Shown: in pieces, positions 7,235 through 51,397 of the stretch
How positions within the stretch are numbered: the first letter of the stretch is position 1
Layout of the letters: each line of letters opens with the position of its first letter
Origin: Escherichia coli
GTDB taxonomy: Bacteria > Pseudomonadota > Gammaproteobacteria > Enterobacterales > Enterobacteriaceae
Length of the DNA stretch: 64,000 nt
Assembly: GCA_009729775.1 (NCBI GenBank)
Contig: GCA_009729775.1_4081.1
Direction: 5' to 3' (one strand)
Notes under the pieces: generated by a model
Told to the model about the DNA's origin: nothing
What the model saw: only the letters and a program-made list of their open reading frames with translations
Database searches by the model: none
Made by a program: the position numbers and the translations under genes

Positions 7235-7253
7235 AATTACCCCCAATAAATGG

Positions 7254-8672
7254 TTAACCTAATGCGTCAATAATACTGTTTGAGAATACTTCAACTGCAC
7301 TCTCACGAATTTCTAAGATACGAGTATAATCATCACAAGTGTTTTTGTCAAATCTAAATTCAATAAACACTGGTAAGAACAGTGATGGCTCACCAGTACG
7401 CTTGTCGAATACAATGTCATTACACTCAACTGTAACCACTTTACCAATAAGTTCTTGCATTCTTTCCCAAATGGTTTTAAATGTCCATTCAGCATCTTTC
7501 TCTTTGATACCAGTACCCACATTAACTTTCAATGAACCACAAGCACTTTCCAGTTGTAAAGAACCTAGGCTTCCTTTACGTTTACCTTCACCTTCATTGA
7601 AACCAACAATACGTAAGTCCAGTTGCATTTTCAATTTCATTTTCAACTGCTTCGGAGAAGTGTGAGATTTCCAGATGCCATCTTCACATTTCAGTACTGA
7701 ACCCTCTTCACCTTCGTTCATTAGTTCACTATTGTACTCAAATGCTTCTTTGATGTTTAGAACTTTACGGAATCCAACCATACGAACAAAATCACTATTG
7801 AGTTCGTTAATTGCATCTACTAAGATCTCGCGACGTTCTTTACGTTTTACATCCCATACGCCTTCACAAAATGCATCATATGGAACAACATCCCATAGAA
7901 CGAATACAGTACGCATTGCTTCATTCTGACTGATGCTATCTTTTCCAGCTTTCTGAATTATACCGTTGCCAGTAGTGCGTGGGAGAATTGTTTCCCCATC
8001 ATTGTCCAGTACTACACCTTCACCCATAAAGACTACACCACTACTAAAACGTTCATCTTTACTTTGGATGATGTGAGCAAGACCTGCCATCTCACCATCT
8101 CGACAACCCAGGAAGTCGTATAGTTTACCATTACGGGATGTAGAAGTTAATGAACCATTAATGACAACGTGGTTCAAGTACTGACCATCCATTTTCACTT
8201 CTGATATAGCATAACCATAATCTTTGAAGTTAATGTTCTTTGCAGTCTTTTTGTCAATCAAAGAACAACGCATATATGGTTCGTCTTTGATGAATCCTTT
8301 ACCAAACACATCATTGCAGTTTTTCTCCTGAATACCACAATCAAGGTTCTTCGTGAGCATTTTACGAAGAACTTCCTGGTCATCTTCTGATACAGAACCC
8401 AGTACTGAAGCAATGAAATCACGCCCAGCATTTCCTGTCACGCCACGCTTGTAAATGCATTCTAGCTTATCAATTGCTTCATCTAACGTCATATGTTGAT
8501 ATACGTCATCAGCGTCAGGGAGCTTCTTATAGCCACTTACGATAGAAGGGTCTAGAGTATATTTCAGTACTTTTTGTAAAGTTACATTATCTTTATTTTG
8601 TTCAAGAATAGCTTTTTTGCCTAGTGTACTGCTAGTATTTTTAATGCTTTCAAGAATTGCTAAAATGCTCAT
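7254..8672 (-). CDS. ATP-dependent DNA ligase (T4 gp30-like)
   Basis: 472 aa; N-terminus GKKAILEQNKDN resembles T4 ligase; adenylation motif SEVKMDGQ (KxDG); length and layout match T4 DNA ligase. Confidence 0.85.
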   Translation of the reverse strand: MSILAILESIKNTSSTLGKKAILEQNKDNVTLQKVLKYTLDPSIVSGYKKLPDADDVYQHMTLDEAIDKLECIYKRGVTGNAGRDFIASVLGSVSEDDQEVLRKMLTKNLDCGIQEKNCNDVFGKGFIKDEPYMRCSLIDKKTAKNINFKDYGYAISEVKMDGQYLNHVVINGSLTSTSRNGKLYDFLGCRDGEMAGLAHIIQSKDERFSSGVVFMGEGVVLDNDGETILPRTTGNGIIQKAGKDSISQNEAMRTVFVLWDVVPYDAFCEGVWDVKRKERREILVDAINELNSDFVRMVGFRKVLNIKEAFEYNSELMNEGEEGSVLKCEDGIWKSHTSPKQLKMKLKMQLDLRIVGFNEGEGKRKGSLGSLQLESACGSLKVNVGTGIKEKDAEWTFKTIWERMQELIGKVVTVECNDIVFDKRTGEPSLFLPVFIEFRFDKNTCDDYTRILEIRESAVEVFSNSIIDALG

Positions 8673-8683
8673 TGTATATTCCT

Positions 8684-9886
8684 TTATAGATAATACTTTC
8701 CAATATAAAGTGGATTACTAATTGATAGTTGAACGTGACATGGTTTGTCTTGGTAGTAACGAGTGCTTGATGTTTTGCGTTCATTTGGTGGGAAGAATGG
8801 GGAACGATAGCCATTCCATGTACTAAATGATGAGTGTTCATTAATATCAACATCCATTACCATAATCCCATTATCATCAATTTGAACCGGATATGCACTA
8901 AAGCGTTCAAATTTATCATTATAATGGATATTATAATCTCCACTACGCCCATAATAACTACGCGTTGTATTATTACTTACACCAAAAAATACGCGATATG
9001 TTTGTTCATTATCTTTAGTCATAAATGGTACGTTCTCATTGAAACGTCCATTATTCATAAGATCATCAACATTTATTTCTTCGTATTTAATTTTAAGGTC
9101 TTTTGCTTTAAATGATTTATTGTGTACCAGTACTGGAATGTTAGATTCACCTAATGGGTTATGTCTGTTTGTTCTATAGCTTTGCCAAAATTCATTAGCA
9201 AGTTTAATTTCTTCATCTGCCGTAGTCTTCTTATTCAAGAGTGCACGAGGTTCCAGATTGTAATTATCCAAACGTTGATTCAATGCATAAGTTCCACGAG
9301 TACTGTTAAAAAGTAAATGATAAACTGAACTCTTATCGGGATATGCAAATTCCTTAGTTTTCTTTATACAAATTGCATGTACTTTACCGCAGTAATAGTA
9401 ATCTTCTTTAAGATAAGTGAAACCATCACCAACTTTAAGACCTGCTACAGTTTCTTTTTGTTGTTCTTTTTTATTTTCTTTTTCAACTAACTTAGCAAAC
9501 GTTTTTGTTTTACCATTAATTAATTCTAAGTTATTGTTGAAAAACATTGGGTCTACAAAAACACCTTTGATTATATCGTTATTGATAATTAAATCATTCA
9601 TGTTTTTTGCACTAATCATAAATTCAAATCCTTCTGGGTGACGGATTGTGAAATATGTTTCTCGTGCATGAGTTGTTAATTTATCAACTACACAAAATCC
9701 CGTAGTTGGAACGTTGTCAATATATAACGATGGAAGATTGTTCTTCTTTGCCCAGTACTCTGCTCTCTCTTTCTTTGTTTCAAACGCTTTTGTATGTGAT
9801 TTTGTTGCATCGATAATAAAACCATCAACTTGGTTGTGGTTTACATAGGAACGTGCAACAAATAACTTCTCTGGAAAATCCATCAA
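8684..9886 (-). CDS. hypothetical protein
   Basis: 400 aa ORF, no motif recognised. Confidence 0.55.
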   Translation of the reverse strand: MMDFPEKLFVARSYVNHNQVDGFIIDATKSHTKAFETKKERAEYWAKKNNLPSLYIDNVPTTGFCVVDKLTTHARETYFTIRHPEGFEFMISAKNMNDLIINNDIIKGVFVDPMFFNNNLELINGKTKTFAKLVEKENKKEQQKETVAGLKVGDGFTYLKEDYYYCGKVHAICIKKTKEFAYPDKSSVYHLLFNSTRGTYALNQRLDNYNLEPRALLNKKTTADEEIKLANEFWQSYRTNRHNPLGESNIPVLVHNKSFKAKDLKIKYEEINVDDLMNNGRFNENVPFMTKDNEQTYRVFFGVSNNTTRSYYGRSGDYNIHYNDKFERFSAYPVQIDDNGIMVMDVDINEHSSFSTWNGYRSPFFPPNERKTSSTRYYQDKPCHVQLSISNPLYIGKYYL

Positions 9887-10302
9887 ATAGTCCTCATTGT
9901 ACTGATTGCTTTTAATGTGTCAAACAATGCACCATATTTTACTTGCATTAGTTGATCACCAGCAGGAAGATTCATACGCATAACAGCCATGTCTTCAATC
10001 ATTTCAGACGTACACAGTACTGCTACACAGGTAATAGCATCATTCAATCCAGCTTCATTGAATTTGGCAAACGGAACTTTTCCCTGTTTGCTGAGGTTGT
10101 TATAATAAGAATTTAACTTATCATGTCCACCAGCATTTAGTACTACAATAGTTTCGTGTTCATTGTACCATTCATCAATAATAGTACTGAAAGCAGTACC
10201 TTCATATTCTTTAATTAGTTTAACACCAGCATGGAATGCTTGAATACCAGCTTGGACACCCTGGCAGTACATATTGGTTAAGCAATATAATTTCATTTCC
10301 AT
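9883..10302 (-). CDS. hypothetical protein
   Basis: 139 aa ORF, ATGA overlap with neighbour. Confidence 0.5.
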   Translation of the reverse strand: MEMKLYCLTNMYCQGVQAGIQAFHAGVKLIKEYEGTAFSTIIDEWYNEHETIVVLNAGGHDKLNSYYNNLSKQGKVPFAKFNEAGLNDAITCVAVLCTSEMIEDMAVMRMNLPAGDQLMQVKYGALFDTLKAISTMRTI

Positions 10303-10520
10303 ACCTCTTGTTTTTCTACGTAGCCTTTCCCATCACAGTGTGGACAAGCATAAAAGCTGCGGTAATCTTCTGACGGTACTTGTTGTGTTCCATTACATGT
10401 AGGACATACTTTACGTGCACCCGAAATAATACGTTCATGGTGTTCAGCTTGTTTAGCTGAATCAAAAATACGACCATCTTCAGTTTGGTATTTTTCTACC
10501 ATAACTTGAATTACTTTCAT
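10293..10520 (-). CDS. zinc-ribbon protein
   Basis: 75 aa; CPTCNG...CPHCDGKG (CxxC...CxxC). Confidence 0.55.
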   Translation of the reverse strand: MKVIQVMVEKYQTEDGRIFDSAKQAEHHERIISGARKVCPTCNGTQQVPSEDYRSFYACPHCDGKGYVEKQEVWK

Positions 10521-10530
10521 TTCTATTTCC

Positions 10531-10800
10531 TTATAAAAATGTTAAATCTTCAGTACTTAATTGTGATAATTTACCATCATATTCAATTTCAACATATACA
10601 TTTTGGTCATAAACAGCAACTACACGTTTAATAACTCCAACCTTCACGACATTCTTTTTGTAGTTGAACTCAACTGAACAACCAATAAGTTTATTTGATA
10701 GAATCTCACGTATTTGATTTGCATGATCTTTTAGGATAGAATTAATAGATTTTTTCATAATATATCTATCATTCAAATATTTTTTAACTACATCATGCAT
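10531..10800 (-). CDS. small hypothetical protein (family C-like)
   Basis: 89 aa; N-terminal helix then LIGCSV...V.V...YDG beta-rich pattern shared with other small ORFs. Confidence 0.45.
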   Translation of the reverse strand: MHDVVKKYLNDRYIMKKSINSILKDHANQIREILSNKLIGCSVEFNYKKNVVKVGVIKRVVAVYDQNVYVEIEYDGKLSQLSTEDLTFL

Positions 10801-10805
10801 AATTA

Positions 10806-11549
10806 TTACCTTTTGAAACGATTGAATGAGTACTCATCTTTTTCTTTACGTAAGTATCTCATTCCACCACTTTGTGGAGTAGCGAGAGTTAAGTCACCCG
10901 TCAAGAACTGACTATCAATCCATATGCGATTTCCGTAAATGAGTGGGTCTGTAACTGCTGTATGTCCACTAAAGACACAATGCACTCCATCTAACTTAGG
11001 TGCATAATATGTATTATTAGTTCTACAATAATCGAATGTTTTTCTATCCCACAAGCACTTATCAATTATATCAGCACTAAGTGATTTTGTCCCATTGACA
11101 AATCGTTCCCATGTTGTATATTCCAACGGAACTCCAGCATGAACTAACCCAATCTTCAATCCTCGGTGATTGATTTGGATAATCATAGGGAGATCCTTTA
11201 AGTACTGACGAAAGAATTGAATGCCTGTTCCCCCAACTTCATCAAGGAATTTATCACCACCATTACTTATCCAACAGTGATACCAATCTCGAAGTGTTTC
11301 CGAATCAACGCACATCATCTCATGATTACCAGCAATCATGTAACGATTTTCTCCGAACAAAAATTCAAAAAGGAGCTTTGAATTTTGTTCTCCACGGTCG
11401 ATAATATCACCTACACTGAAAACATAATCATTGTGTGTAATACCAAATTCTTTCACTGTAGCATCCCATAGTTTACCATTACCATGCAAATCACCTACAA
11501 TGTATAAATCTTTATCATCAGGTACGGTTACTTCTAAGAAGTGTTTCAT
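10806..11549 (-). CDS. PPP-family Ser/Thr protein phosphatase (lambda-phosphatase-like)
   Basis: GDLHGN, GDIIDRG, GNHE motifs; start trimmed to MKHFLEV with GGAG RBS. Confidence 0.8.
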   Translation of the reverse strand: MKHFLEVTVPDDKDLYIVGDLHGNGKLWDATVKEFGITHNDYVFSVGDIIDRGEQNSKLLFEFLFGENRYMIAGNHEMMCVDSETLRDWYHCWISNGGDKFLDEVGGTGIQFFRQYLKDLPMIIQINHRGLKIGLVHAGVPLEYTTWERFVNGTKSLSADIIDKCLWDRKTFDYCRTNNTYYAPKLDGVHCVFSGHTAVTDPLIYGNRIWIDSQFLTGDLTLATPQSGGMRYLRKEKDEYSFNRFKR

Positions 11550-11551
11550 TA

Positions 11552-11803
11552 TTACTCCAACCATATAATATTAGTGTGTTTAGTAACTTGTGTTCCAGCA
11601 AAAGAACCATCTTTAAGATAAGTATTAATTTTAAAACGCCATTCACCCCCACTAATATACATATCAGTAATAATATACTTTCCATACCCTCTGGAGTTTA
11701 TTAATCGTACTTCTTGACCAATATATTTTGGCTTCAGATCATTTATAAAATCATCAGCCAAAGACATAAGATATCGCAAATGTGATAAGTCGGTGTTGAA
11801 CAT
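11552..11803 (-). CDS. small hypothetical protein (family C-like)
   Basis: 83 aa; KYIGQEVRL...G.W.F.I pattern. Confidence 0.45.
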   Translation of the reverse strand: MFNTDLSHLRYLMSLADDFINDLKPKYIGQEVRLINSRGYGKYIITDMYISGGEWRFKINTYLKDGSFAGTQVTKHTNIIWLE

Positions 11804-12979: not shown

Positions 12980-13283
12980 ATTCTACTCCTTTGTATATAA
13001 ATTTACTAACTTCTTCGATGTATAAAGACGTTCCTGAACGTTCATTTAGAACTAACCAAGCACCAAAACCACATCGAATCTCGGATATATGAAACTCTTC
13101 TACACTATAATTTGAATACGCGTTAAATGGACATATTTCATCAGATATACTTACCACATAGTTATTATTAATTGAATCTAACACCTGGGTATTGTATAAA
13201 TTATTAGTACTGAAAATCTGCATTAACGAGCTAGAAAGCATCTCGGTTGTCTTTTCTAATATTGTTAAAAACGAACCATTCAC
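12957..13283 (-). CDS. hypothetical protein
   Basis: 108 aa ORF. Confidence 0.45.
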   Translation of the reverse strand: MNGSFLTILEKTTEMLSSSLMQIFSTNNLYNTQVLDSINNNYVVSISDEICPFNAYSNYSVEEFHISEIRCGFGAWLVLNERSGTSLYIEEVSKFIYKGVEYVNPNYS

Positions 13284-13340
13284 TTCAACTTCTCCCTATT
13301 GGTGATGTAATCAAATTATATCACCGAATTCTGATACGTC

Positions 13341-13646
13341 TCATGATATTCGCATTTCATCTATATATAATGAACATGATTCAGAATTATCGTCTAAACT
13401 TAAACCTAAATCGACCATTAAACCACAATGCGTTCCCCAGAATTTTTTTATGTATAGTTTTTTGCTACTATTACCTAAATCATAAACATATTCATTTTTA
13501 AACATACTTTTTAATTCTTCACATATACATTTTACTATCTTCATTAATTGATTATGATATTCGTATGGTATCCCATCAAGTTCGTTAATTATTAATGCAA
13601 AACCATTATCATAGTACTTTAGCTTATTGAATGTTTGTATATCCAT
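13341..13646 (-). CDS. hypothetical protein
   Basis: 101 aa ORF. Confidence 0.45.
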   Translation of the reverse strand: MDIQTFNKLKYYDNGFALIINELDGIPYEYHNQLMKIVKCICEELKSMFKNEYVYDLGNSSKKLYIKKFWGTHCGLMVDLGLSLDDNSESCSLYIDEMRIS

Positions 13647-13943
13647 TTAATATATAATCTCACTAGCTTCTATTGTGTAGACACCATCATCAGTCATTAA
13701 TCTTACTGCAACTTTAATATTACTAGACATTCGTGTAACTATCAATCCAATAATTATACCATTCTTTAAAGTACCATTATGGTATCTAACTTTTACTTCA
13801 GTTTTATTATCAATTAAGTATCTTCTAATTATGTGTATTTCATTTCTGAATAATTCTAAAAAAGCTTCACTATTTTCTTTATCTGACCCGTCTGAACACC
13901 AGTACAATAAATTTACTTGTTCAAATAATTTTTTTATATTCAT
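13647..13943 (-). CDS. small hypothetical protein (family C-like)
   Basis: 98 aa ORF. Confidence 0.45.
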   Translation of the reverse strand: MNIKKLFEQVNLLYWCSDGSDKENSEAFLELFRNEIHIIRRYLIDNKTEVKVRYHNGTLKNGIIIGLIVTRMSSNIKVAVRLMTDDGVYTIEASEIIY

Positions 13944-14299
13944 AAAAATCTCACAGATTTAATATTACTGGTTACATGATTTACCCAAGTGTTATCGAAC
14001 TTGTAAACAATTGTATTAAGTGATTTATGAAAATTAACCTCGCACACTAATGCCTTGGAACCATTGATTGTACAGACCGTGGATGGTAAGTTGTTTGCTA
14101 ATATCTCTTTTTCATCTAAACAAAGTGAACTAATACAATCATAATAGAGAGGTTCAAGAACTTTTTCAGTACTGAGAAATTCAAAAGAAAGATCATCTAT
14201 TAGTTTTATGTAATCGAATAAATTATGATAATATTCATTCATTGTAGATCCTTTTAAATTTAGCATTATTAGAATATGTATATGAATGACCAAAATCAT
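13940..14299 (-). CDS. hypothetical protein
   Basis: 119 aa ORF. Confidence 0.45.
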   Translation of the reverse strand: MILVIHIHILIMLNLKGSTMNEYYHNLFDYIKLIDDLSFEFLSTEKVLEPLYYDCISSLCLDEKEILANNLPSTVCTINGSKALVCEVNFHKSLNTIVYKFDNTWVNHVTSNIKSVRFL

Positions 14300-14489
14300 T
14301 TACACCATGTACATTTAGTACACCGTCACTGAAATAAATTCGATCAATAGTGAGTTCACGTTTATAATCCCAATCATCATACCAGCACAGAACACGAATA
14401 CCTTTGTACTTTGTAGTTAAATCATTTTCTAATATAGTCAAGTAATCAATATGACTTTTGAATATCTCTAAGTCCTGCTCAAACATCAT
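14235..14489 (-). CDS. small hypothetical protein (family C-like)
   Basis: 84 aa; KYKGIRVLCW pattern. Confidence 0.45.
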   Translation of the reverse strand: MMFEQDLEIFKSHIDYLTILENDLTTKYKGIRVLCWYDDWDYKRELTIDRIYFSDGVLNVHGVNDFGHSYTYSNNAKFKRIYNE

Positions 14490-14746
14490 TGTTCCTCGTA
14501 TAATTCTATATCATCAACTCCAACTTGGCGAATTGCAGTACTTCTGTTGAATGTATTTTTTTCAAACAAACATACTGTTAAACGTATTTCACACTTCAAT
14601 GCACTGTAATAAATCATATCAATAACACCATATGTTTCATACATTTCTACGTATACATTTCGACCTAAATACTTTTCTTCTAAATCAGTAATTAGACTAT
14701 TGATAAGATTACCTATCTGTGTTATATCTGTGTGAAATTTATCCAT
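14486..14746 (-). CDS. small hypothetical protein (family C-like)
   Basis: 86 aa; KYLGRNVYVE pattern. Confidence 0.45.
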   Translation of the reverse strand: MDKFHTDITQIGNLINSLITDLEEKYLGRNVYVEMYETYGVIDMIYYSALKCEIRLTVCLFEKNTFNRSTAIRQVGVDDIELYEEQ

Positions 14747-14923
14747 TATAATAAACCTCTCACATAAAACATTGATGAAAATAGATAATCATTAGTACTT
14801 GTGTTTAGTTGTTTAGAAAAGTTATATTTTTTATCTTTATTTTCGTATAAAGACAATCTATAGAACATTTCTATATTTTCTAAGTATTCTTTTTGTAACA
14901 ACATCTGTGTTTTTACATTCATT
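14746..14923 (-). CDS. small hypothetical protein
   Basis: Track ORF 14746..14991 trimmed to internal Met (MNVKTQ) because a hairpin and the PNK 3' end occupy the upstream part. Confidence 0.3.
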
Positions 14924-14940
14924 ATAATATACCTTAAAAG

Positions 14941-14970
14941 AAAAAGGGACCAACATATGATCCCTTTTGT
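14941..14970 (-). terminator. possible weak terminator after pseT
   Basis: A5-GGGA-loop-TCCC-T4; short stem, low confidence. Confidence 0.3.
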
Positions 14971-14971
14971 A

Positions 14972-15904
14972 TTAGAAATTTCCTTCTGCAACTTGCATTA
15001 CTTTCAAGCCAAGTAGCTTACGCCACATGAATACAACTTGATCGCGGTCATCATAAACCTTTTTAACATCGTAATGATCAACCACATTTTTCATGTACAG
15101 GTCGAATTTTACAACATCATCGGGACGTTTATCATCTATGTCTCGCATAAACAATGCATCGTAAGGAATACCCCAATTCTTAAGCCACTGTTCGGTATCA
15201 GCACGACACCCTTCAGTACGCCCACTCATGACGATAATCTTGCGTTTATGAAAAACTGCTTCAGCGATAATAGACAAAATAACTTCTTCATCTGGTGTAT
15301 CCTGAAGAACAGTACTTTCATCGTAAGGATTACGACCCCATTTATGAGCAAGAGTACCGTCAATATCAACGATAACAGCAGCTTCTCGTGAATTACCATA
15401 GTAACCAATGTGCATGGCCTTACTATAATAGTACGTATCTGCCATAGTGTCAATGATATTATCTTGTACTGAACGCTCACGCATGAGGTTACGTTTCTTA
15501 CAAAGTTTTACGAACTCTTTAATCTTAAAGAAAACATGAACATCTGCACCACGATCTTCATTCGGTACAAAATCTTCGTAGAAGTTCTTTTCTTTGTAGT
15601 CGTATTCATTATCTTTAGCCCAACGTTTCCATTCATCACGGAAATGTTGTTTAAGGTTCGTATCGGACACAATGATGTTCCAACCATTCTCTGCTGCTGA
15701 ATTTGCTGCACTGAACTGCATTTTAGTTACGTACTGCTCATTAGCGTCGTTGAATTTGTATGCATCATGTGACCCTGCCATTGATTCTCGAATGTCATCA
15801 CGGTTAATGTTGATAGTCTTCGATTTGGCATTTTTAATTTCTTGAACTGCCCATGTGGTTTTACCACAACCAGGCAACCCAACTGTTAGTGTAATAGTTG
15901 GCAT
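14972..15904 (-). CDS. pseT: polynucleotide 5'-kinase / 3'-phosphatase (T4 PseT-like)
   Basis: 310 aa; P-loop GLPGCGKTTWA, NINRDD, VIVDIDGTLA (HAD DxDGT), KVYDDRDQVV; collinear with T4 Pnk (GCPGSGKSTWA...NINRDD...FDVDGTLA). Confidence 0.9.
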   Translation of the reverse strand: MPTITLTVGLPGCGKTTWAVQEIKNAKSKTININRDDIRESMAGSHDAYKFNDANEQYVTKMQFSAANSAAENGWNIIVSDTNLKQHFRDEWKRWAKDNEYDYKEKNFYEDFVPNEDRGADVHVFFKIKEFVKLCKKRNLMRERSVQDNIIDTMADTYYYSKAMHIGYYGNSREAAVIVDIDGTLAHKWGRNPYDESTVLQDTPDEEVILSIIAEAVFHKRKIIVMSGRTEGCRADTEQWLKNWGIPYDALFMRDIDDKRPDDVVKFDLYMKNVVDHYDVKKVYDDRDQVVFMWRKLLGLKVMQVAEGNF

Positions 15905-15916
15905 TATTACTCCTTG

Positions 15917-16231
15917 TTACTCAATGAATTCTACATCTTCGAGTTTGTGCCATCCTCTTGAAAGGTTTCTTGTTCCGTTATTGTATTCAGTGTATACAAA
16001 GCATTCACCATTTACTAAATTACCAATAGCAGTACGCGATACTTTAACATCAAGAATTATAGTACTGAACCATTCTCTGATTGTATGATCCCAGCATTTA
16101 ACTTTACATCCAATCAATGTTTTCTTAAAATCGAAAACGTAATCTTCGACCATTGATTCGACAGATTCTATTAGTTCCTTTTCAATGTACTTTAACTTTT
16201 CGATCCTCTCAAATGCAAGTTCTTTATTCAT
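15917..16231 (-). CDS. small hypothetical protein (family C-like)
   Basis: 104 aa ORF. Confidence 0.45.
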   Translation of the reverse strand: MNKELAFERIEKLKYIEKELIESVESMVEDYVFDFKKTLIGCKVKCWDHTIREWFSTIILDVKVSRTAIGNLVNGECFVYTEYNNGTRNLSRGWHKLEDVEFIE

Positions 16232-16237
16232 ATGTCC

Positions 16238-16492
16238 TCAATTATCTAGAACATCCACTATCAAACAAGCTTCAATAACGAAACAATCATCTAATTCAAA
16301 GAGTAATTGATAGTCATCAGAAAACTTCACTTTAGTAATGTAAGCACTTTCAATTCCACCACTATGATAAGAACTATATAAAATACATTTACCTGTATAT
16401 TCCTTACGGATACGACTAAATTCTTCATATAAATGAGTAATAAACGTATCCGCAGTTTTGTTGTAGTATTTTAGGTCACTTACTGTGCTCAT
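16238..16492 (-). CDS. small hypothetical protein (family C-like)
   Basis: 84 aa ORF. Confidence 0.45.
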   Translation of the reverse strand: MSTVSDLKYYNKTADTFITHLYEEFSRIRKEYTGKCILYSSYHSGGIESAYITKVKFSDDYQLLFELDDCFVIEACLIVDVLDN

Positions 16493-16706
16493 TAACTTTT
16501 CCTACTCCAAATCGTTTGGAGATTTTCACAAGTACAGATTCATCACAACGAATACTAGCTGTATCATTGGATGAACTGTACTTTAATGGGGTCCACTGTA
16601 ATTGAGATTCTTCTAGGAACTTGATACATCTGAAGTAATCTTTCAGAGAAAGAAATTTAACTACTGACATATCCTGAACAATACTATGCTGAACTTCAAC
16701 TTTCAT
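16476..16706 (-). CDS. small hypothetical protein
   Basis: 76 aa ORF. Confidence 0.4.
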   Translation of the reverse strand: MKVEVQHSIVQDMSVVKFLSLKDYFRCIKFLEESQLQWTPLKYSSSNDTASIRCDESVLVKISKRFGVGKVNEHSK

Positions 16707-16715
16707 ATGAACTCC

Positions 16716-16973
16716 TTATAGTGGATCAAATTTATTTTCACGTTTCGATGTATAGCGAGTTACATCATGTATTCTCGGCTTAACACCTTTTGGTTTCCTT
16801 TTCTTCTTGTATTCAGTACTACTACATCCGAAGGTATTCTCGATTCGTTTCTTACTTATCTTCACACCTTTCATTGAGCGTTTGTGCTGTAATTCATCGA
16901 TTTCTTCTTGTATTTTCCTGAACTCAGTCGGAGAAAGGGAACCGTCATTTTTATACTTAGGTTTAGCCATCAC
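16716..16973 (-). CDS. small basic Lys/Arg-rich protein (possible nucleic-acid binding)
   Basis: 85 aa, KKRKPKGVKPR; AAGGAG RBS. Confidence 0.5.
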   Translation of the reverse strand: MMAKPKYKNDGSLSPTEFRKIQEEIDELQHKRSMKGVKISKKRIENTFGCSSTEYKKKRKPKGVKPRIHDVTRYTSKRENKFDPL

Positions 16974-17000
16974 TTCTCCTTGTGCTTAGGCTAGATAGTA

Positions 17001-18143
17001 CTAAAAATCCTTTAGTACAATTTTCATGTATTTTATAAGAGTCTCTTTGTAATCAACTTTCTTATTGTTATACATTGCAAAGGCCAAGCCCTGACGATTC
17101 AGTTCATTAGTTAAACACTCCTGAACCTTCATTGCGAATTCCTTTCGCTCCAAGTGCTTGTGTTCCTTGACGAAGCTTTCTACTTCATCTTGTAATGCAT
17201 TATAGCACGAAAATACCAATTGTTCCATTCTTAATATCTTTTGCATAGCATATTCATCAGTACTGAACAATTGTTTTAAATCATCACTAGAACCATTTAA
17301 TACTGCTTCATATAAATGAGAATCAATAATAATACTATCTTTTGTAAGATGTAATGAACTGTACCAGTCAGTCTTTATTTTACACATTGTCCCATTATTT
17401 AGGATGCACACAAAACCCTCAATATCAAGCATTTTATGAACTTCCTCCACGCTTTCACGGAAGGTATTTCGTACCGGAAAAGTGTGATGAATATCTTTTC
17501 CAGTCATATTAGTACTGTACTGTGCAAGACATGGAAACTTATCACGTAGTGCTTTACCACATAGCAACTCACCACTCACACGATGACGAACGTTCAGTAC
17601 AAACAGTTGTTCTACCTGATATGGTAATACAATTCGGTACTCTGGGCTTGTATACTCCATATTAACTGTGTAACCTAAACGTTCCGCTTCGTCGATGTAC
17701 TGATACAAATTCTGGTTCTCGTTAATAAGTCGAGTACTGTTAATCGCATGGTCAGAGTACAATGCAGTATGTGATTTACAACGAATCTCACCATCATTAT
17801 CACGGTAAGTACTGATTACTGAACCATCCAACTTAGGCATCACTACTGCAATGTCATTACATGTGGTGTTGGCAGGGAACATTGTAGCAGGATTCTCATA
17901 AGCATTAAAGAACTTTTTCATAGTACGGGCAGCACAACGAATCATTTCACCTTCTTCATCAATTTCCCACATAGATCCACGGGTTTCTAATGCATTGGGT
18001 TGCATGAAATCAGTATATGATGCTAGTCGGTAACTGAATACACGATACGTGCCACCAGCAGGACTTTTATGATCTACATAAAAGAACGCATCGTTTGTAT
18101 TACATAAGTGCATTAAATCTTCATATATTTGCAAAAGGGTCAT
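17001..18143 (-). CDS. rnlA: RNA ligase 1 (T4 Rnl1 / gp63-like)
   Basis: 380 aa; YRVFSYRLASYTDF, ETRGSMWE, nucleotidyl-transfer motif KLDGSV, IEGFVCI, KIKTDWY; collinear with T4 Rnl1 (YRIFSYNYASYSDW...KEDGSL...KIKSDWY). Confidence 0.9.
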   Translation of the reverse strand: MTLLQIYEDLMHLCNTNDAFFYVDHKSPAGGTYRVFSYRLASYTDFMQPNALETRGSMWEIDEEGEMIRCAARTMKKFFNAYENPATMFPANTTCNDIAVVMPKLDGSVISTYRDNDGEIRCKSHTALYSDHAINSTRLINENQNLYQYIDEAERLGYTVNMEYTSPEYRIVLPYQVEQLFVLNVRHRVSGELLCGKALRDKFPCLAQYSTNMTGKDIHHTFPVRNTFRESVEEVHKMLDIEGFVCILNNGTMCKIKTDWYSSLHLTKDSIIIDSHLYEAVLNGSSDDLKQLFSTDEYAMQKILRMEQLVFSCYNALQDEVESFVKEHKHLERKEFAMKVQECLTNELNRQGLAFAMYNNKKVDYKETLIKYMKIVLKDF

Positions 18144-18448
18144 TTTATTACCTCTATATCTACATCAGTTCCATAATATGATATTAATCCATCATCAGAT
18201 TCACACTGAATAGACAACTCAGATTCATAGTATGTTACTTTATTCACTGTTAGTACGTGTTCTTCAATTTTTCCAGAAAAATAATTCATTTCACGCACAC
18301 GAACTTTAGTTCCTTTAGGTAGTTCATCTGAGATTTTTTGAACAAGTTCATAAGCAGCCTGTTCAAGTGTGTACAGTAATTGTAATCTATCTTGAATATT
18401 CATATTATTTCCACCAACTTGTATCACGTCCATTAGACAAAGATTCAT
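18140..18448 (-). CDS. small hypothetical protein (family C-like)
   Basis: 102 aa ORF. Confidence 0.45.
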   Translation of the reverse strand: MNLCLMDVIQVGGNNMNIQDRLQLLYTLEQAAYELVQKISDELPKGTKVRVREMNYFSGKIEEHVLTVNKVTYYESELSIQCESDDGLISYYGTDVDIEVIK

Positions 18449-19094
18449 TGTACTGATGCCTAAAATTAGTTTTTGGATTATTGTTCATAGTACTAATAAA
18501 ATCAAATTTAACATTCTCTTGAATATATTTTTTAACACTATCTTTAAATTTAATAGTACTGAAGTCTAAATCTAGATGTTCATACAATACCGGATGACAA
18601 AACTCATGTGTACGCAACGATGGCATAGTATCCTTAATGTATTGCACAGTGTTAATCATTGCATTGTATTCAGGCATAGCACGCATCATCATTAGCTGAA
18701 AGTGTTCTTCCTCTGACATTGACTCATCCAAATCAATAACGACTTCATCATTTTTAGAGTCATAAACTTTAATGGTACTCTTGGTTGGATCAAGCATCGC
18801 CCACTCTGGATACAGGCATGTTTTCCAAAAAGGATTATTGCACTGAAACATACTAATGAGATTTTGATCTTTATCAAAAATAGCAAATCCAAGATCCGAA
18901 CTTGGTTGTACTTCACATACACAAATATCGTAAGACGAGTCTTCAGTACTGAGTGAACCAACTACATTTGATATATGTGAATATGGAGTTTCTCTTGACT
19001 CCAACTGAAATGTACTTTCAATTCGATTGATTTGTGGATGTAATGTAATTACACCCCTTAGTACATATAAAATTCTATCTAAATCTTTAATCAA
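18405..19094 (-). CDS. family A paralog (outlier)
   Basis: 229 aa; motif SEEEHFQLMMM. Confidence 0.5.
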   Translation of the reverse strand: MIKDLDRILYVLRGVITLHPQINRIESTFQLESRETPYSHISNVVGSLSTEDSSYDICVCEVQPSSDLGFAIFDKDQNLISMFQCNNPFWKTCLYPEWAMLDPTKSTIKVYDSKNDEVVIDLDESMSEEEHFQLMMMRAMPEYNAMINTVQYIKDTMPSLRTHEFCHPVLYEHLDLDFSTIKFKDSVKKYIQENVKFDFISTMNNNPKTNFRHQYNESLSNGRDTSWWK

Positions 19095-19669
19095 AATTCT
19101 ATCCCCGTATCGGTTAATTTCGTTCCGTCCATGTACTTAACAGTTATTTCAATGCGTCGATCAGTACTCAATTTTTGAAGATCATTGTAGTACAATTTAA
19201 ATTCTTCAAAGAACTCAAGTGGTGGAATATCGTATAAAGTACTAATCTGGAAGTGCTCAGGTAATCCAAATTCCAATATATCAATCTTAGGCATAAGTCC
19301 ATCGGCTGCTGCACCTTCTGGAGTACTGCTGTCTGCTACATAAAACATAGAATTACCATGACGCTGGATAACGAATATGCAATCATCTTCACTTACATAA
19401 ATCATATTTCCAAGGTATGGATCGTTATCACACCAATTATCATGGACGAGTTGTTCAACTTGAAGTAAATCTTTTATAATTCCCTGACCACTATCGTCAA
19501 CTAGAATATGTAAACCAGAACAATCTTTGCTCAACCAGCGGTATCTTGCATCACATCCTGATTCCATAAATGGATATTTTGAAAAATCCATATCAGTACC
19601 ATTATAAAACCAATCGTACCACTCGTTACGCATAGTAATCAGCTTAGTACTTAATTCTAATACATTCAT
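19091..19669 (-). CDS. family A paralog (outlier)
   Basis: 192 aa; motif PEHFQISTLYD...FEEF. Confidence 0.55.
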   Translation of the reverse strand: MNVLELSTKLITMRNEWYDWFYNGTDMDFSKYPFMESGCDARYRWLSKDCSGLHILVDDSGQGIIKDLLQVEQLVHDNWCDNDPYLGNMIYVSEDDCIFVIQRHGNSMFYVADSSTPEGAAADGLMPKIDILEFGLPEHFQISTLYDIPPLEFFEEFKLYYNDLQKLSTDRRIEITVKYMDGTKLTDTGIEF

Positions 19670-19676
19670 TTTAGTT

Positions 19677-19979
19677 TTATCCTCTTAATTTAATAGTACT
19701 GGCTGGATATTCTACCAAAGTATTATCAGGTAATCCTATACAGTAATAAGGGAAATACCCCATCTTTATATTAATACCAATTAAAATTCCTGTTTTATAT
19801 GAAGTATTAATTCCATAGTAATCGTCTATATCAACAGCAAGTCCATATAATGATATGTTACAATCCTTGATATATCGGTCAAACATTTTATACATTGCAG
19901 AATATAAAGTTCCATTGGATTGTCTCACCAAATCAGCCAACATTTTGATAGTACTGTTAATTAAATCTATACTGAACAT
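19677..19979 (-). CDS. small hypothetical protein
   Basis: 100 aa ORF. Confidence 0.45.
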   Translation of the reverse strand: MFSIDLINSTIKMLADLVRQSNGTLYSAMYKMFDRYIKDCNISLYGLAVDIDDYYGINTSYKTGILIGINIKMGYFPYYCIGLPDNTLVEYPASTIKLRG

Positions 19980-19992
19980 CTTTGTACCTGCG

Positions 19993-20016
19993 AAAAAAGA
20001 CCAGCAAACGCTGGCC
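19993..20016 (-). terminator. rho-independent terminator
   Basis: Minus strand GGCCAGC-gttt-GCTGGTC followed by TTTTTT. Confidence 0.55.
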
Positions 20017-20023
20017 TAAGAAT

Positions 20024-20305
20024 TTAAATTATTTCATAAAGACAATATACACCATCAACACCAGCATCAGGAAAATCAACATAGAAATTCACACTAACAG
20101 TGTCGTAATCTATATCAGTGATTCGTCCGGTTTTACCTACACTTTTTACAAATATATCAGTACCAAGATACACAAACTCAAATTCGTCAGCATACTCTTT
20201 TATGATATCTGCGAACCAACAACCACACCTAGGTTCTGTGTTAATAATTTCAAGATATAATGTAATATATTGTTCGTATGTCCATGTGTGTAGATAAAAA
20301 TCCAT
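20024..20305 (-). CDS. small hypothetical protein (family C-like)
   Basis: 93 aa ORF. Confidence 0.45.
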   Translation of the reverse strand: MDFYLHTWTYEQYITLYLEIINTEPRCGCWFADIIKEYADEFEFVYLGTDIFVKSVGKTGRITDIDYDTVSVNFYVDFPDAGVDGVYCLYEII

Positions 20306-20315
20306 AGCAGTTTCC

Positions 20316-21053
20316 TTAGAAATATATCATACCCATCAATTCAGAATCGGCGGGGCGAGTATAACCTTGCTTCTTAACTTTAAAATAGAATGATTCATGC
20401 TCTTCTAAATTATAACGTTTTTTCAAGCAACGAGTGTATGTCTGACAATTTGGGTGAACCCATTCATAAATGTGAATGCCATTTTCGTCATAACCATTTA
20501 TACTACAACGATTTCCTTCATGCTTCATAAAGTTTTTACTTTTTTCAGTAAATTCTTTCACTGTAGTTGTATATGGAGATTTGTATTCAAAAGGAACTTC
20601 AGTCATACGAAAATAATAGTATTCTTCGTCTTCATCATATCCCAAGAGCACTGTGTTAGTTTCACGTACATTGTAATGATTCTTACTTTTTAATTCATTT
20701 TCGTATATATCTTTCAGTACTTCTGCAAAAACTTCATCGCTTGATGCATTAGGATTAGATACACCTGATACTCGGCGTTCAATAATAAAATCAGTGAATT
20801 TGCGGTCTTCGGCAATATCTTCGTTCATATAAAGACTAACAAACTTATCCTTATATGTCTTTACACTATATTGCTTACTTTGTACTTCACTATAAACATC
20901 TGCTAACATATTCTCCTGACCACACTGCACACCACTTACAGAATAAGCACATGCATGTTCAGCCATTACTGATGTTAACATTTGGAAATTTGCCATGTTT
21001 AATTCATTCGCCATCTCTGTAGCGAAACGGATACGGTCAAGCATTTCACACAC
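20316..21053 (-). CDS. hypothetical protein
   Basis: 245 aa; AAGGAG RBS. Confidence 0.55.
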   Translation of the reverse strand: MCEMLDRIRFATEMANELNMANFQMLTSVMAEHACAYSVSGVQCGQENMLADVYSEVQSKQYSVKTYKDKFVSLYMNEDIAEDRKFTDFIIERRVSGVSNPNASSDEVFAEVLKDIYENELKSKNHYNVRETNTVLLGYDEDEEYYYFRMTEVPFEYKSPYTTTVKEFTEKSKNFMKHEGNRCSINGYDENGIHIYEWVHPNCQTYTRCLKKRYNLEEHESFYFKVKKQGYTRPADSELMGMIYF

Positions 21054-21084
21054 TCCTTGTGTTAATTATTGTTCCTTACCCATT

Positions 21085-21113
21085 ATTATATCATGAATTA
21101 AACTATTGTCCCT
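21085..21113 (-). promoter_or_regulatory. possible promoter with extended -10 (TGaTATAAT) upstream of 20316..21053
   Basis: Reverse complement contains catgaTATAAT about 30 nt before the ATG; -35 element weak. Confidence 0.3.
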
Positions 21114-21399
21114 GTTTATAGCAATAAAGATTCTCTAATTTAAAGTCCACTAGGTCACATTCAGAACGTACTCGATTCTTGTTCCAGAATAAAATACGAA
21201 TCCTTTCATAATCACGATAAACACTAATAATGCTTCGGTGCTTGGATTTGTAGTACTCCTGTACTATCCCCAGATACACAGTCCTCAATAAAGACTTAGT
21301 TGGATAGGGCATATTCTGTGCTGACGTGATATTGTAAATCATCTTCATTGTTTCAGCAATAAGTACTTCATTTGTTCTCATTGTAATCCTTACATACAC
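21103..21399 (-). CDS. hypothetical protein
   Basis: 98 aa ORF. Confidence 0.45.
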   Translation of the reverse strand: MYVRITMRTNEVLIAETMKMIYNITSAQNMPYPTKSLLRTVYLGIVQEYYKSKHRSIISVYRDYERIRILFWNKNRVRSECDLVDFKLENLYCYKQGQ

Positions 21400-21540
21400 T
21401 ATGCAAAGTAAACCCTAAACCAACACCGACAAATGGAAATAGTAAATTGATATACCAAGTATTAATTGATGAAAGGAAACAAATCCCACATACTGTCAGT
21501 ACTGCCAATGAAAAAAGACTCCAGATAAAAAATACTGTTC

Positions 21541-22088: not shown

Positions 22089-22284
22089 CATGAACACGCT
22101 CACAATTAAGGCAATAAATGCACTCAATGTCAGGTCGCCATGATTTATCAAAATCTTTGTGCTGTTCTTCGGTGTATTCTGCATCATCATTAATAGGGAA
22201 GAAATCACCAGCACCAGTCGCCCAGTCTGAATCTAAACGGAAACGAGCTAATTGAGTACTGTTACAATATGGACACTTATTCAA
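22084..22284 (-). CDS. zinc-ribbon protein
   Basis: 66 aa; CPYCNS...CIYCLNC. Confidence 0.5.
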   Translation of the reverse strand: MNKCPYCNSTQLARFRLDSDWATGAGDFFPINDDAEYTEEQHKDFDKSWRPDIECIYCLNCERVHD

Positions 22285-22561
22285 AATTTATTCCTTCTAA
22301 CTGATATACGTTTAATGAAAATGACCCACTATTATTATCGCATCTGAAACACAGTGTTAAAGAACCATTAAAACTAACTACATCCGTACAGATACATTTT
22401 TCACCATTGGATATGATAGATTTTCCTATATATAAATCTCTTACTATAGTACGGTAATGTTGCCATAAAAAATAATACACACTTTCATAGTACTCATCTT
22501 TTACATATGATAAGTATAAGAATTTATAAAATACTTGTATTTCCTTTAAGTTGTTTTTCAT
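22277..22561 (-). CDS. family C tandem paralog
   Basis: 94 aa; N-terminus EIQVFYKFLYLSY, then YIGKS...G.L.L. Confidence 0.5.
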   Translation of the reverse strand: MKNNLKEIQVFYKFLYLSYVKDEYYESVYYFLWQHYRTIVRDLYIGKSIISNGEKCICTDVVSFNGSLTLCFRCDNNSGSFSLNVYQLEGINFE

Positions 22562-22835
22562 TCTCCAACTCCAGTAAATTTACACCAATCCAATCAACAT
22601 CACTATCAGTACTTAATTCCAATCGTAGCTTACCGCTATGACTAACAATATCGCGGAATTTGTATATTTTATTATCACGAACTATACACAAATCATGGTA
22701 ATATTCATGTAATTCATCCAAAAACTTTATCCATACCGAACGATAGATTTCACCGTAGAGATATTCTCCAGCATCAACCGTAGCGTATTGGATATACAAA
22801 AATTTATATGTGAATTGTATATCATTTAATAACAT
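22524..22835 (-). CDS. family C tandem paralog
   Basis: 103 aa; N-terminus LLNDIQFTYKFLYIQY. Confidence 0.5.
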   Translation of the reverse strand: MLLNDIQFTYKFLYIQYATVDAGEYLYGEIYRSVWIKFLDELHEYYHDLCIVRDNKIYKFRDIVSHSGKLRLELSTDSDVDWIGVNLLELENEKQLKGNTSIL

Positions 22836-22845
22836 ATGTAACCTC

Positions 22846-23157
22846 TTATAAATTCACCAACTTCACAACTTTAATCTCGATAAATCCCCTATCGGTTATT
22901 TCAAGAAATTCAACATGGATAATCCCATTGTATGATTTAACTCCAGAGAACTCGAATATATCATTTCCGTCGATAAAAGTACTGTAATTCTTTTTTATAT
23001 ATTCACCTACTGAATCTAAGTACTCAATATATAAATCAATAAATGGTTGTTCTTTGTATGGGTTATGTGAACCTATTTTGTTACTAACAAGGTATACATC
23101 ATACAAATCATATAGGATCTTATAAGTGAATTGTATATCATTTAAATTTAATCCCAA
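22846..23157 (-). CDS. family C tandem paralog
   Basis: 103 aa; N-terminus LNLNDIQFTYKILYDLY. Confidence 0.5.
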   Translation of the reverse strand: MGLNLNDIQFTYKILYDLYDVYLVSNKIGSHNPYKEQPFIDLYIEYLDSVGEYIKKNYSTFIDGNDIFEFSGVKSYNGIIHVEFLEITDRGFIEIKVVKLVNL

Positions 23158-23414
23158 GGGAATATCTCCAACGGAATACTGGTAAATCCAAAATCAGTGT
23201 AGTACTGAACCTCAACTTTACCATCACGTCTAATGATTATATCAGAAAATTCTGCATGGTCATCACCAATAATAACAGTACTGAATTTTTTTTTAATCTT
23301 ACCACGAATCGTATGAATCATTTCAGTGCATGTGTCTTCTAGACTAGGGCTATCATTGTCGTGTGCTAAATCTCGAATAATCTTGTATGTTAGTAGGAAA
23401 TCTTTATAATTCAT
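23148..23414 (-). CDS. family C tandem paralog
   Basis: 88 aa; N-terminus MNYKDFLLTYKIIRDL. Confidence 0.5.
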   Translation of the reverse strand: MNYKDFLLTYKIIRDLAHDNDSPSLEDTCTEMIHTIRGKIKKKFSTVIIGDDHAEFSDIIIRRDGKVEVQYYTDFGFTSIPLEIFPWD

Positions 23415-23686
23415 ATGTCCACCAAATCTATACTATATCTTTCATTAGTATTACTATCTATAAATGATAGTACTAATTTACCACCAAAACTATTAACTTG
23501 TTCTATCTTCTGTTTTTTACCACGAATGATTATCTCACTATTAACAAAATATTCACGTATCATTATTAAGTGATTAATCCAGATAGTATGAGTGAATGTG
23601 TTTTCTCGTATTGTATTGAGATATCTTCCATTGTGATGTAAATCAAACAAAACACTGTATGTATATTGTAGAACTTTATAATTCAT
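23411..23686 (-). CDS. family C tandem paralog
   Basis: 91 aa; N-terminus MNYKVLQYTYSVLFDL; AAGGGGA RBS. Confidence 0.5.
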   Translation of the reverse strand: MNYKVLQYTYSVLFDLHHNGRYLNTIRENTFTHTIWINHLIMIREYFVNSEIIIRGKKQKIEQVNSFGGKLVLSFIDSNTNERYSIDLVDI

Positions 23687-44704: not shown

Positions 44705-44885
44705 AACGGATATCCTTCTTCAGCGAATTAATATATTCCAAAATAACTTGTTCCTGATATTGGGTTCCCAAGTACATCAGGACTTTCAACTCTTTGAATT
44801 CAGTACTATATGAGTCTGTTTGCATCATTCTAGTAGAATATATATTGAATAGTTTAGCAATGTCATTTTGGTCTATTATTTTCAT
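44694..44885 (-). CDS. family B paralog (embedded in family A array)
   Basis: 63 aa; motif LMYLGTQYQEQVILEYINSLKK. Confidence 0.5.
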   Translation of the reverse strand: MKIIDQNDIAKLFNIYSTRMMQTDSYSTEFKELKVLMYLGTQYQEQVILEYINSLKKDIRYVR

Positions 44886-48485: not shown

Positions 48486-48486
48486 T

Positions 48487-48978: not shown

Positions 48979-48987
48979 TTTATAATC

Positions 48988-51243: not shown

Positions 51244-51397
51244 TGGTGTACTGTGAACTCAGCACCACTAATAGGTAATCTATATTGTAAGCACGATTTC
51301 CTCGTTGACTAGCACGGCTGGAATAAAGAATATTATCCACATATGTATTGAACTGATCTTCAAATAACTCTTTCATCAGCATTATCCCATCACATAA

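Follow-up and report, generated by a model that had tools for sequence, protein, structure and literature searches.

Over some 3 kb of the window (the whole stretch of 64,000 nucleotides that was analysed), the genes for a predicted T4-type RNA ligase 1 (Rnl1) and a predicted polynucleotide kinase/phosphatase (Pnkp) lie on the same strand, separated by small open reading frames and followed by a terminator-like hairpin (Table 1). At this locus the DNA is 99.0% identical to that of vB_Eco_slurp01 and 98.2% identical to that of 121Q (over 5.5 kb), both of which are Asteriusvirus jumbo coliphages. An earlier note on this DNA had recognised pseT and rnlA as homologs of the T4 genes; both ORFs have exactly the boundaries it gave, on the minus strand, and the homology is borne out by full-length, collinear matches to T4 Pnkp and Rnl1 in Pfam, PHROG, PDB and NCBIfam, far beyond chance. 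It had also counted five small ORFs between the two enzymes, where we count four, and had called them uncharacterised. Pfam, NCBIfam and PHROGs indeed suggest no function for any of them, but they are not alike, two being conserved throughout the lineage and two forming a variable cassette.

Table 1. Features of the rnlA-pseT locus (positions in the window)
Feature	Position	Strand	Description	Basis or remarks
hairpin	14942..14968	-	terminator-like, 11-bp stem and U-run	pattern scan; starts 4 nt past the pseT stop codon
pseT	14972..15904	-	predicted bifunctional polynucleotide 5'-kinase / 3'-phosphatase, 310 aa	PHROG 505, Pfam, PDB 1LTQ
orfA	15917..16231	-	104 aa, variable cassette	PHROG 31355, no function given
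orfB	16238..16492	-	84 aa, variable cassette	absent from phAPEC6/PBECO4-type relatives
orfC	16476..16706	-	conserved 76-aa protein	PHROG 14730; predicted beta-beta-alpha-beta-beta-alpha fold
orfD	16716..16973	-	small, very basic protein	directly downstream of rnlA; PHROG 15306, no function given
rnlA	17001..18143	-	predicted T4-type RNA ligase 1, 380 aa, nucleotidyltransferase and Rnl1-specific C-terminal helical domain	PHROG, Pfam, NCBIfam, PDB

The identification of the two enzymes is correct but ordinary, since the same annotation and interpretation already exist for published jumbo coliphages that are nearly identical. GenBank names the corresponding 121Q genes, 438 and 443, as RNA ligase and polynucleotide kinase (orfA to orfD corresponding to genes 442-439), and a role for both enzymes in countering the abortive-infection system Prr was proposed earlier for a phage of the same species, phAPEC6 (PMC7247149).

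The pseT product matches PHROG 505 ('polynucleotide kinase') over its full length (1e-96) and, in Pfam, both HAD_PNKP (1.9e-43, profile positions 2-143 of 143) and AAA_33 (4.6e-14), while its residues 2-310 align with residues 2-301 of the T4 Pnkp structure 1LTQ (3.7e-38). It is 100% identical to gp443 of 121Q. The invariance of catalytic columns, here and in Rnl1, was judged across Asteriusvirus, RaK2 and one T4-like phage. The P-loop GxxxxGK[ST] is present as G9-L-P-G-C-G14-K15-T16, aligned to T4 G9...K15-S16, and the kinase Asp and Arg, found in N-I-N-R-D36-D-x-R39 and invariant across the three genera, are the counterparts of T4 Asp35 and Arg38, which published mutagenesis established as kinase catalytic residues. 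In the phosphatase domain, the DxDxT (HAD) motif D180-I-D182-G-T lies opposite T4 D165-V-D167-G-T, and R191, S227/R229, D262, K266 and D285/D286 are further invariant columns; the essential phosphatase residues of the T4 enzyme are R176, S211/R213, D254, K258 and D277/D278. Asp165 is the phosphatase nucleophile of T4 Pnkp (PMC3592404).

Relative to T4, the kinase domain of the window protein contains an insertion of about 19 aa (residues ~109-130). The lid arginine that contacts ATP in T4 Pnkp, Arg126, aligns to Met141, with Arg142 adjacent, in three independent alignments (phmmer, MAFFT and BLASTP); given a one-residue shift, the window's KRNLMR resembles the KRNSKR of T4 at this site. Both the insertion and the motif NL[ML]R are common to the window protein and RaK2.

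The evidence for Rnl1 is of the same kind. The rnlA product matches PHROG 562 (3.8e-109), the T4 Rnl1 structure 2C5U (2.9e-57) and two Pfam families, RNA_lig_T4_1 (PF09511, 4.8e-15) and T4_Rnl1_C (PF20819, 6.8e-17), the latter being the all-helical C-terminal domain (residues 268-379, profile positions 1-113 of 122). It scores 294 bits against the NCBIfam equivalog TIGR02308, whose cutoff is 242.25, and shares 99.5% identity with its closest relative. Motif I, K104-L-D106-G107, is invariant (the adenylated lysine of T4 being Lys99), as are, against RaK2 and the T4-like phage, R55, K77/F79, E163, E242-G243 and K255-I-K257, whose T4 counterparts are R54, K75/F77, E159, E227-G228 and K240-x-K242. 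The three motifs whose integrity the earlier note had singled out, the kinase P-loop, DxDGT and KxDG, are all present and invariant.

The genes are tightly packed, in the order rnlA, orfD, orfC, a variable filler (orfB and orfA) and pseT, with successive gaps of 27, 9, -17, 6 and 12 nt, and rnlA itself overlaps its upstream ORF by 4 nt. The hairpin that follows pseT folds with -14.4 kcal/mol (z = -3.3, RNA fold), and a terminator is annotated at the equivalent position in UE-S1. Hairpins of different sequence stand at the same position in Yen9-04 and GAP32, making three genera in all; none was found after pseT in RaK2. These tiny spacers and overlaps, together with the terminator-like hairpin, indicate that the genes from rnlA to pseT are probably co-transcribed. 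A sigma-70 promoter scan, yielding 23 sites against 30 in shuffled sequence, gives no information on where the transcript starts. The arrangement of rnlA, small genes and pseT on one strand recurs in the T4-like phage AR1, in RaK2, GAP32, fHe-Yen9-04 and XbC2, and in three metagenomic contigs, the distance between the two enzyme genes staying at 0.7-1.2 kb while nearly all the neighbouring small genes change.

Among the small genes themselves, orfA and orfB are the ones that vary. The DNA alignment shows the orfB segment replaced in phAPEC6, and the orfB product has no Pfam or PHROG match; gp373c of phAPEC6 is a 34%-identical allele of orfA in the same place (BLASTP 1.3e-17). By contrast, orfC and orfD are present between the two enzyme genes at every RaK2-like locus examined, with turnover of the small genes around them. 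Homologs of orfD (85 aa from a GTG, or 84 aa from the ATG start used for 121Q gene 439) were found by tblastn in 62 jumbo-phage records, and its product is 57% identical to g061 of Yersinia phage fHe-Yen9-04, in the same position. Homologs of orfC occur in 71 jumbo-phage records, and its product shares 69% identity with that of Yen9-04, as against 58% for Rnl1 and Pnkp. The synonymous sites of orfC are variable, so that selection acts on the protein, and in several genera the gene overlaps the start codon of pseT.

An AF2 model of the orfC product (pLDDT 83.7) has no significant PDB match by Foldseek (best E 0.12, TM<0.6), and in the viral library BFVD only the RaK2 ortholog was matched. Resemblances to SUI1, PII and ACT folds were considered and set aside as non-specific. 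A profile search of 1.84 billion representative proteins returned three genuine clusters and six weak multi-stretch matches in long proteins, which look spurious; no relative outside the RaK2-like clade was found among those proteins. The four small ORFs and their neighbours might by eye be taken for one paralogous family, with an N-terminal helix and a beta-rich C-terminus, but iterative profile searches of the window revealed no family of this kind among them, and none of the four is similar to alc or pseT.1-3 of T4-like phages (BLASTP best E~0.6). Further upstream, a conserved ORF (20316-21053, 245 aa; AF2 model pLDDT 92.4) had been guessed by eye to be a PD-(D/E)xK nuclease; the model matches nothing in the PDB, leaving that guess unsupported.

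The circumstantial evidence of conservation above that of the enzymes, overlap with the pseT start, constant position and restriction to one clade raises the possibility, which we advance only tentatively and do not favour, that orfC and perhaps orfD are dedicated, hitherto undescribed components of an RNA repair module of the RaK2-like phages, acting for instance as adaptor or specificity factor or inhibiting an anticodon nuclease. Alternatively, they may be bystanders that merely sit between rnlA and pseT.

As regards the enzymes, collinear full-length homologs with all the named motifs intact make heal-and-seal repair as in T4 the natural reading. The repair mechanism of T4 and its PrrC target are documented (PMC2610378, PMC12409363), and this phage encodes both the healing and the sealing enzymes of the PrrC counter-defence. 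From the observed homology, domain architecture, motif integrity, synteny and conservation of the pair, we infer that both proteins would be active enzymes and that the locus probably serves an Asteriusvirus jumbo coliphage of the 121Q/slurp01 type as its T4-type RNA repair module, reversing the cleavage of tRNA by anticodon nucleases in vivo. In a broken RNA, Pnkp would turn the 2',3'-cyclic phosphate into 3'-OH by its HAD-type DxDGT phosphatase domain and the 5'-OH into 5'-phosphate by its P-loop kinase domain; Rnl1 would then reseal the break via a Lys104-AMP intermediate, presumably directed to tRNA anticodon loops by its C-terminal helical domain. The most likely role of the module would be to undo cuts made by anticodon nucleases with cyclic-phosphate and 5'-OH products, such as PrrC-type HEPN enzymes and similar ribotoxins.

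A different purpose for the pair is conceivable. Besides its ligase activity, T4 gp63/Rnl1 has a ligase-independent activity in tail-fibre attachment, which sequence does not distinguish from the repair role, and PHROG 562 and many GenBank records describe the family as 'RNA ligase and tail fiber protein attachment catalyst'. The two genes could thus be kept mainly for other functions, Rnl1 for tail-fibre attachment and Pnkp for cleaning DNA ends, as a 3'-phosphatase/5'-kinase acting during host-DNA breakdown and phage replication, with their adjacency reflecting inherited synteny only. Also encoded within a few kb are an ATP-dependent DNA ligase and two metallophosphoesterases, so that the region holds several genes for processing nucleic-acid ends, and since T4-like phages share the gene order, the linkage could be purely ancestral. 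We nevertheless find this explanation unlikely. Every catalytic column of the ligase and the tRNA-directing C-terminal domain are invariant between genera at only 37-64% overall identity, a sign that selection maintains the ligase activity itself, and the two genes have stayed within 0.7-1.2 kb of each other despite the replacement of almost all their small neighbours. Moreover, T4 holds both activities in one protein, so a tail-fibre function would add to RNA repair without excluding it.

It is less likely still, indeed quite improbable, that the enzymes process RNAs of the phage itself, by maturing or splicing phage tRNAs or by circularising RNA. Heal-and-seal enzymes do splice tRNA elsewhere, fungal Trl1 being an example, and a PTH2-like peptidyl-tRNA hydrolase encoded 5 kb away suggests a general investment of the phage in tRNA upkeep. 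Against this, however, no tRNA genes were found in the 64-kb window and positions 13000-21500 contain no match to any Rfam family, those for introns included; nor is such processing by Pnkp or Rnl1 known from T4. The T4 enzymes are, in addition, dispensable on ordinary hosts (PMC2610378). Least credible of all is that the genes are decaying relics devoid of activity, as the lack of an exact match at the T4 Arg126 column and the kinase-domain insertion might hint: the ORFs are intact and of full length, each protein is (as given above) all but identical to one in a related phage, the remaining catalytic residues are all invariant, and the sharing of the insertion and of NL[ML]R with RaK2 marks them as conserved features of the lineage, not decay.

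The earlier note had gone on to conclude that the host range includes strains with a tRNA-targeting defence. That step is weak and unsupported. All RaK2-like genera carry the pair, on hosts that include Escherichia, Klebsiella, Salmonella, Cronobacter, Yersinia, Serratia, Erwinia, Pectobacterium and Xanthomonas; homologs of Rnl1 are found in 1,647 phage records and those of Pnkp in 2,134; and isolates grown on K-12 MG1655 carry near-identical copies of both genes. The presence of the pair is therefore a sign of descent and not a guide to the defences of a given host; the module belongs to the inherited core of the RaK2-like lineage as a whole and is not an adaptation informative on one host.

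The finding thus confirms a textbook gene pair that had already been linked in print to evasion of Prr in the same phage group. Phages of Asteriusvirus used in therapy or biocontrol would be expected to tolerate anticodon nucleases whose products end in cyclic phosphate and 5'-OH, but not necessarily enzymes that cut nucleotides out or work by other chemistry; RloC and other wobble-excising nucleases are believed to be resistant to repair by the heal-and-seal route (PMC2610378). Beyond this, orfC and orfD are retained between the enzymes across all RaK2-like genera; should they contribute to repair or to the neutralisation of a nuclease, they would be a new component of a paradigm 40 years old.

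Compared with known systems, the module shares with the bacterial Pnkp1-Rnl-Hen1 and Pnkp/Hen1 systems the same heal-and-seal logic against ribotoxins (PMC4411300), and Pnkp1 (PDB 4XRP) ranks second among the structural relatives of the window Pnkp (5.1e-32); it differs from these systems in that its ligase is of the Rnl1 type and that no Hen1-like methyltransferase was detected in it. The window Pnkp has the two-domain architecture of T4 Pnkp (pseT; 1LTQ) over its full length and keeps the catalytic residues, but is only 34-38% identical to it and differs further in the insertion and in the placing of Met141, next to Arg142, opposite T4 Arg126. Similarly, the ligase has motifs I, Ia, III, IV and V and the Rnl1-specific C-terminal domain of T4 RNA ligase 1 (gene 63/rnlA; 2C5U, 5TT6), but is ~37% identical, with an insertion of ~17 aa near 197-213 and a shorter C-terminus. 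The T4-like block rnlA-alc-pseT.3-pseT.2-pseT.1-pseT, as found in AR1, has the same order and strand, whereas the genes it encloses are unrelated to orfA-D. Closest of all are the other members of Asteriusvirus: although phAPEC6/PBECO4-type genomes differ in the absence of orfB and the divergence of their orfA allele (34% identical), genes 438-443 of 121Q, the corresponding region of slurp01 and gp372c-gp376c of phAPEC6 constitute essentially the same locus.

The products of pseT and rnlA are a polynucleotide kinase/phosphatase (Pnkp) and an RNA ligase 1 (Rnl1). The earlier note had called both homologs of the T4 enzymes, and the Pfam, PHROG, PDB-structure and NCBIfam matches bear this out, being far beyond chance for each protein. 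Pnkp matches the Pfam profiles HAD_PNKP (1.9e-43, nearly the entire profile covered) and AAA_33 (4.6e-14), PHROG 505 'polynucleotide kinase' over its full length (1e-96) and the solved structure of T4 Pnkp, 1LTQ (3.7e-38, residues 2-310 on 2-301). Rnl1 matches RNA_lig_T4_1 (4.8e-15), T4_Rnl1_C (6.8e-17), PHROG 562 (3.8e-109) and the T4 Rnl1 structures 2C5U and 5TT6 (about 3e-57), and scores 294 bits on the NCBIfam equivalog TIGR02308 (cutoff 242).

Coordinates of the repair module and of other features in the window
Feature	Position	Strand	Remarks
Calcineurin-like metallophosphoesterase	6443-7246	-	
ATP-dependent DNA ligase	7254-8672	-	
Protein annotated just 'hydrolase'	9883-10302	-	139 aa; 121Q gene 458
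Calcineurin-like metallophosphoesterase	10806-11564	-	
pseT (Pnkp)	14972-15904	-	310 aa
orfA	15917-16231	-	between the enzymes
orfB	16238-16492	-	between the enzymes
orfC	16476-16706	-	between the enzymes
orfD	16716-16973	-	between the enzymes
rnlA (Rnl1)	17001-18143	-	380 aa
ORF matching PHROG 16105 (unknown function)	20316-21053	-	245 aa

Each enzyme was aligned with those of jumbo phage RaK2 and T4-like phage AR1. The three motifs whose loss the earlier note had regarded as evidence against the assignment (P-loop, DxDGT and KxDG) are all intact. Invariant in this alignment are, for Pnkp, the P-loop G9-x4-G14-K15-T16, D36 and R39 (T4 D35 and R38), D180-I-D182-G-T (T4 D165 and D167), R191, S227, R229, D262, K266 and D285-D286, and, for Rnl1, K104-L-D106-G107 (T4 K99-E-D-G), R55, K77, F79, E163, E242-G243 and K255-I-K257; the T4 numbering and the essentiality of these residues follow published mutagenesis. 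T4 Arg126 falls opposite Met141 of Pnkp in phmmer, MAFFT and BLASTP, with Arg142 next door, and 'KRNLMR' of Pnkp resembles 'KRNSKR' of T4 with a one-residue shift. Asp165 of T4 Pnkp is named as the nucleophile in PMC3592404.

The 5.5 kb around the locus match 36 related records; identity is 99.0% with Escherichia phage vB_Eco_slurp01 and 98.2% with phage 121Q, both of the genus Asteriusvirus (genomes ~350 kb), and Pnkp is 100% identical to 121Q gp443. In GenBank, 121Q gene 443 is named 'polynucleotide kinase' and gene 438 'RNA ligase and tail fiber protein attachment catalyst', and the paper on the Asteriusvirus phage phAPEC6 (PMC7247149) has proposed a role of the pair against the Prr abortive-infection system. 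The gene pair and its interpretation are therefore already known.

By homology, T4-like action is expected: the phosphatase domain of Pnkp would strip the 2',3'-cyclic or 3'-phosphate, its kinase domain would add a phosphate to the 5'-OH, and Rnl1, with a C-terminal domain predicted to favour tRNA, would seal the break via a lysyl-AMP intermediate, so that the module should be effective against nucleases leaving cyclic-phosphate and 5'-OH ends. This heal-and-seal pathway is documented (PMC2610378; PMC12409363); wobble-excising RloC is thought to resist repair (PMC2610378), and defences of other chemistry, or reliance of a phage on its own tRNAs, represent different strategies (PMC12409363). 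Alternatively, tail-fibre attachment may be the main reason for keeping Rnl1, and the cleaning of DNA ends that for keeping Pnkp; however, the catalytic residues of the ligase are invariant and rnlA and pseT stay linked, which points to selection on the repair activity. A role in processing the phage's own RNAs may also be considered but finds no support, with no tRNA genes found in the whole 64-kb window and no Rfam matches near the locus. Decay of rnlA and pseT, which may also be envisaged, is contradicted by their intact and strongly conserved ORFs.

The repair-pair reading of the earlier note stands, as do its observations save for a miscount (four ORFs, not five, separate the enzymes), but its further step, that the host range includes strains with tRNA-targeting defence, is unsupported, the whole RaK2-like jumbo-phage lineage carrying the module regardless of host. 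Homologs occur widely among 50,697 phage records (Rnl1 in 1,647, Pnkp in 2,134), and near-identical copies of the module are present in isolates grown on K-12 MG1655, O157:H7, ATCC 25922 and Salmonella; K-12 is not known to carry prr. Because the module is lineage-wide and its copies are found in phages on varied hosts, the pair is a sign of shared descent and of broad insurance against defences that cleave RNA, not of a particular host property.

The order rnlA, small genes, pseT on one strand recurs in RaK2, GAP32, fHe-Yen9-04 (a Yersinia phage) and XbC2, and on three metagenomic contigs with divergent orfC homologs. Compact genera have rnlA, orfD, one extra small gene, orfC and pseT, the orfC/pseT start overlap being 13 nt. 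Homologs of all window ORFs at 12.9-21.1 kb were sought in three other genera, up to ~2.5 kb from the module; none but rnlA, orfD, orfC, pseT and the 245-aa ORF had any. The latter, the only further near-module gene conserved across RaK2-like genera, may have an undescribed fold, judging from a highly confident AF2 model (pLDDT 92.4, pTM 0.85) with no PDB match by Foldseek (best E 0.12, TM<0.2).

From rnlA to pseT the gaps are 27, 9, -17, 6 and 12 nt; between rnlA and the ORF upstream of it there is a 4-nt overlap. Past the pseT stop, at a distance of 4 nt, lies a hairpin with a U-run behind it (14968 to 14942; -14.4 kcal/mol, z = -3.3), where the UE-S1 annotation places a terminator and Yen9-04 and GAP32 have hairpins of different sequence; none was found after pseT in RaK2. 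Tight packing and the hairpin make co-transcription of the module, ending at pseT, plausible. A promoter scan was uninformative. GAP32 (locus L007, 792-820) has a near-consensus sigma-70-like site just upstream of rnlA (TTGACA, 17 nt, TG-TATATT), with no equivalent found in the window; this site and the post-pseT hairpin would bound a five-gene rnlA-to-pseT operon in GAP32.

The small genes orfA-orfD correspond to 121Q genes 442-439 and have no Pfam or NCBIfam match, all PHROGs matched being of 'unknown function'. A variable cassette is formed by orfA and orfB; in phAPEC6/PBECO4-type genomes window ~15905-16490 is swapped for a single orfA allele (34% identity), without orfB. This cassette-swap hotspot lies directly upstream of pseT, with sharp breakpoints where pseT starts and at the orfC 3' end; 121Q has orfA and orfB as here. 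By contrast with this cassette, orfC and orfD show conservation across every RaK2-like jumbo genus: 71 phage records match orfC and 62 match orfD, from phages of Escherichia, Klebsiella, Salmonella, Cronobacter, Yersinia, Serratia, Erwinia, Pectobacterium and Xanthomonas. Identity to the Yersinia phage is 69% for orfC, 58% for Rnl1 and Pnkp and 57% for orfD, and orfC third-codon positions vary freely, indicating constraint on the protein. The predicted orfC fold is a confident beta-beta-alpha-beta-beta-alpha (AF2, pLDDT 83.7) with no significant PDB match and, in a viral library, the RaK2 ortholog alone; its family is very narrow (30 clusters in 5.8 billion proteins, 3 genuine representatives in 1.84 billion). 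The orfD product, read from sequence, is short and strongly basic. Retention of both genes within the module across genera is suggestive and the residual point of interest, and a true functional partnership seems unlikely.

The 'hydrolase' scores above the gathering cutoff of the Pfam PTH2 family, peptidyl-tRNA hydrolase (26.8 bits, cutoff 23, E 6.4e-6), and matches PHROG 3668, and on this similarity would be a second tRNA-salvage function, ~5 kb from pseT. The two calcineurin-like metallophosphoesterases and the ATP-dependent DNA ligase form a minus-strand cluster of nucleic-acid/phosphate-processing genes (6443-11564). Plain phmmer also found very large minus-strand paralogous families at 19091-59727, 44694-63972 and 22277-23686, with 34 (54-204 aa), 20 (63-96 aa) and 5 members; such expansions make up more than a third of the window ORFs. 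Strand bias is extreme: among the 152 non-overlapping ORFs in the whole window that reach 45 aa or more, 145 are on the minus strand. GC skew is negative in all 2-kb bins.

Compared with T4 Pnkp, the kinase domain carries a ~19-aa insertion (residues ~109-130), which RaK2 shares and which is therefore a lineage-specific feature. The gene order resembles that of AR1 (rnlA-alc-pseT.3-pseT.2-pseT.1-(one more)-pseT, also on one strand), but the T4 filler genes between rnlA and pseT are unrelated to orfA-orfD.
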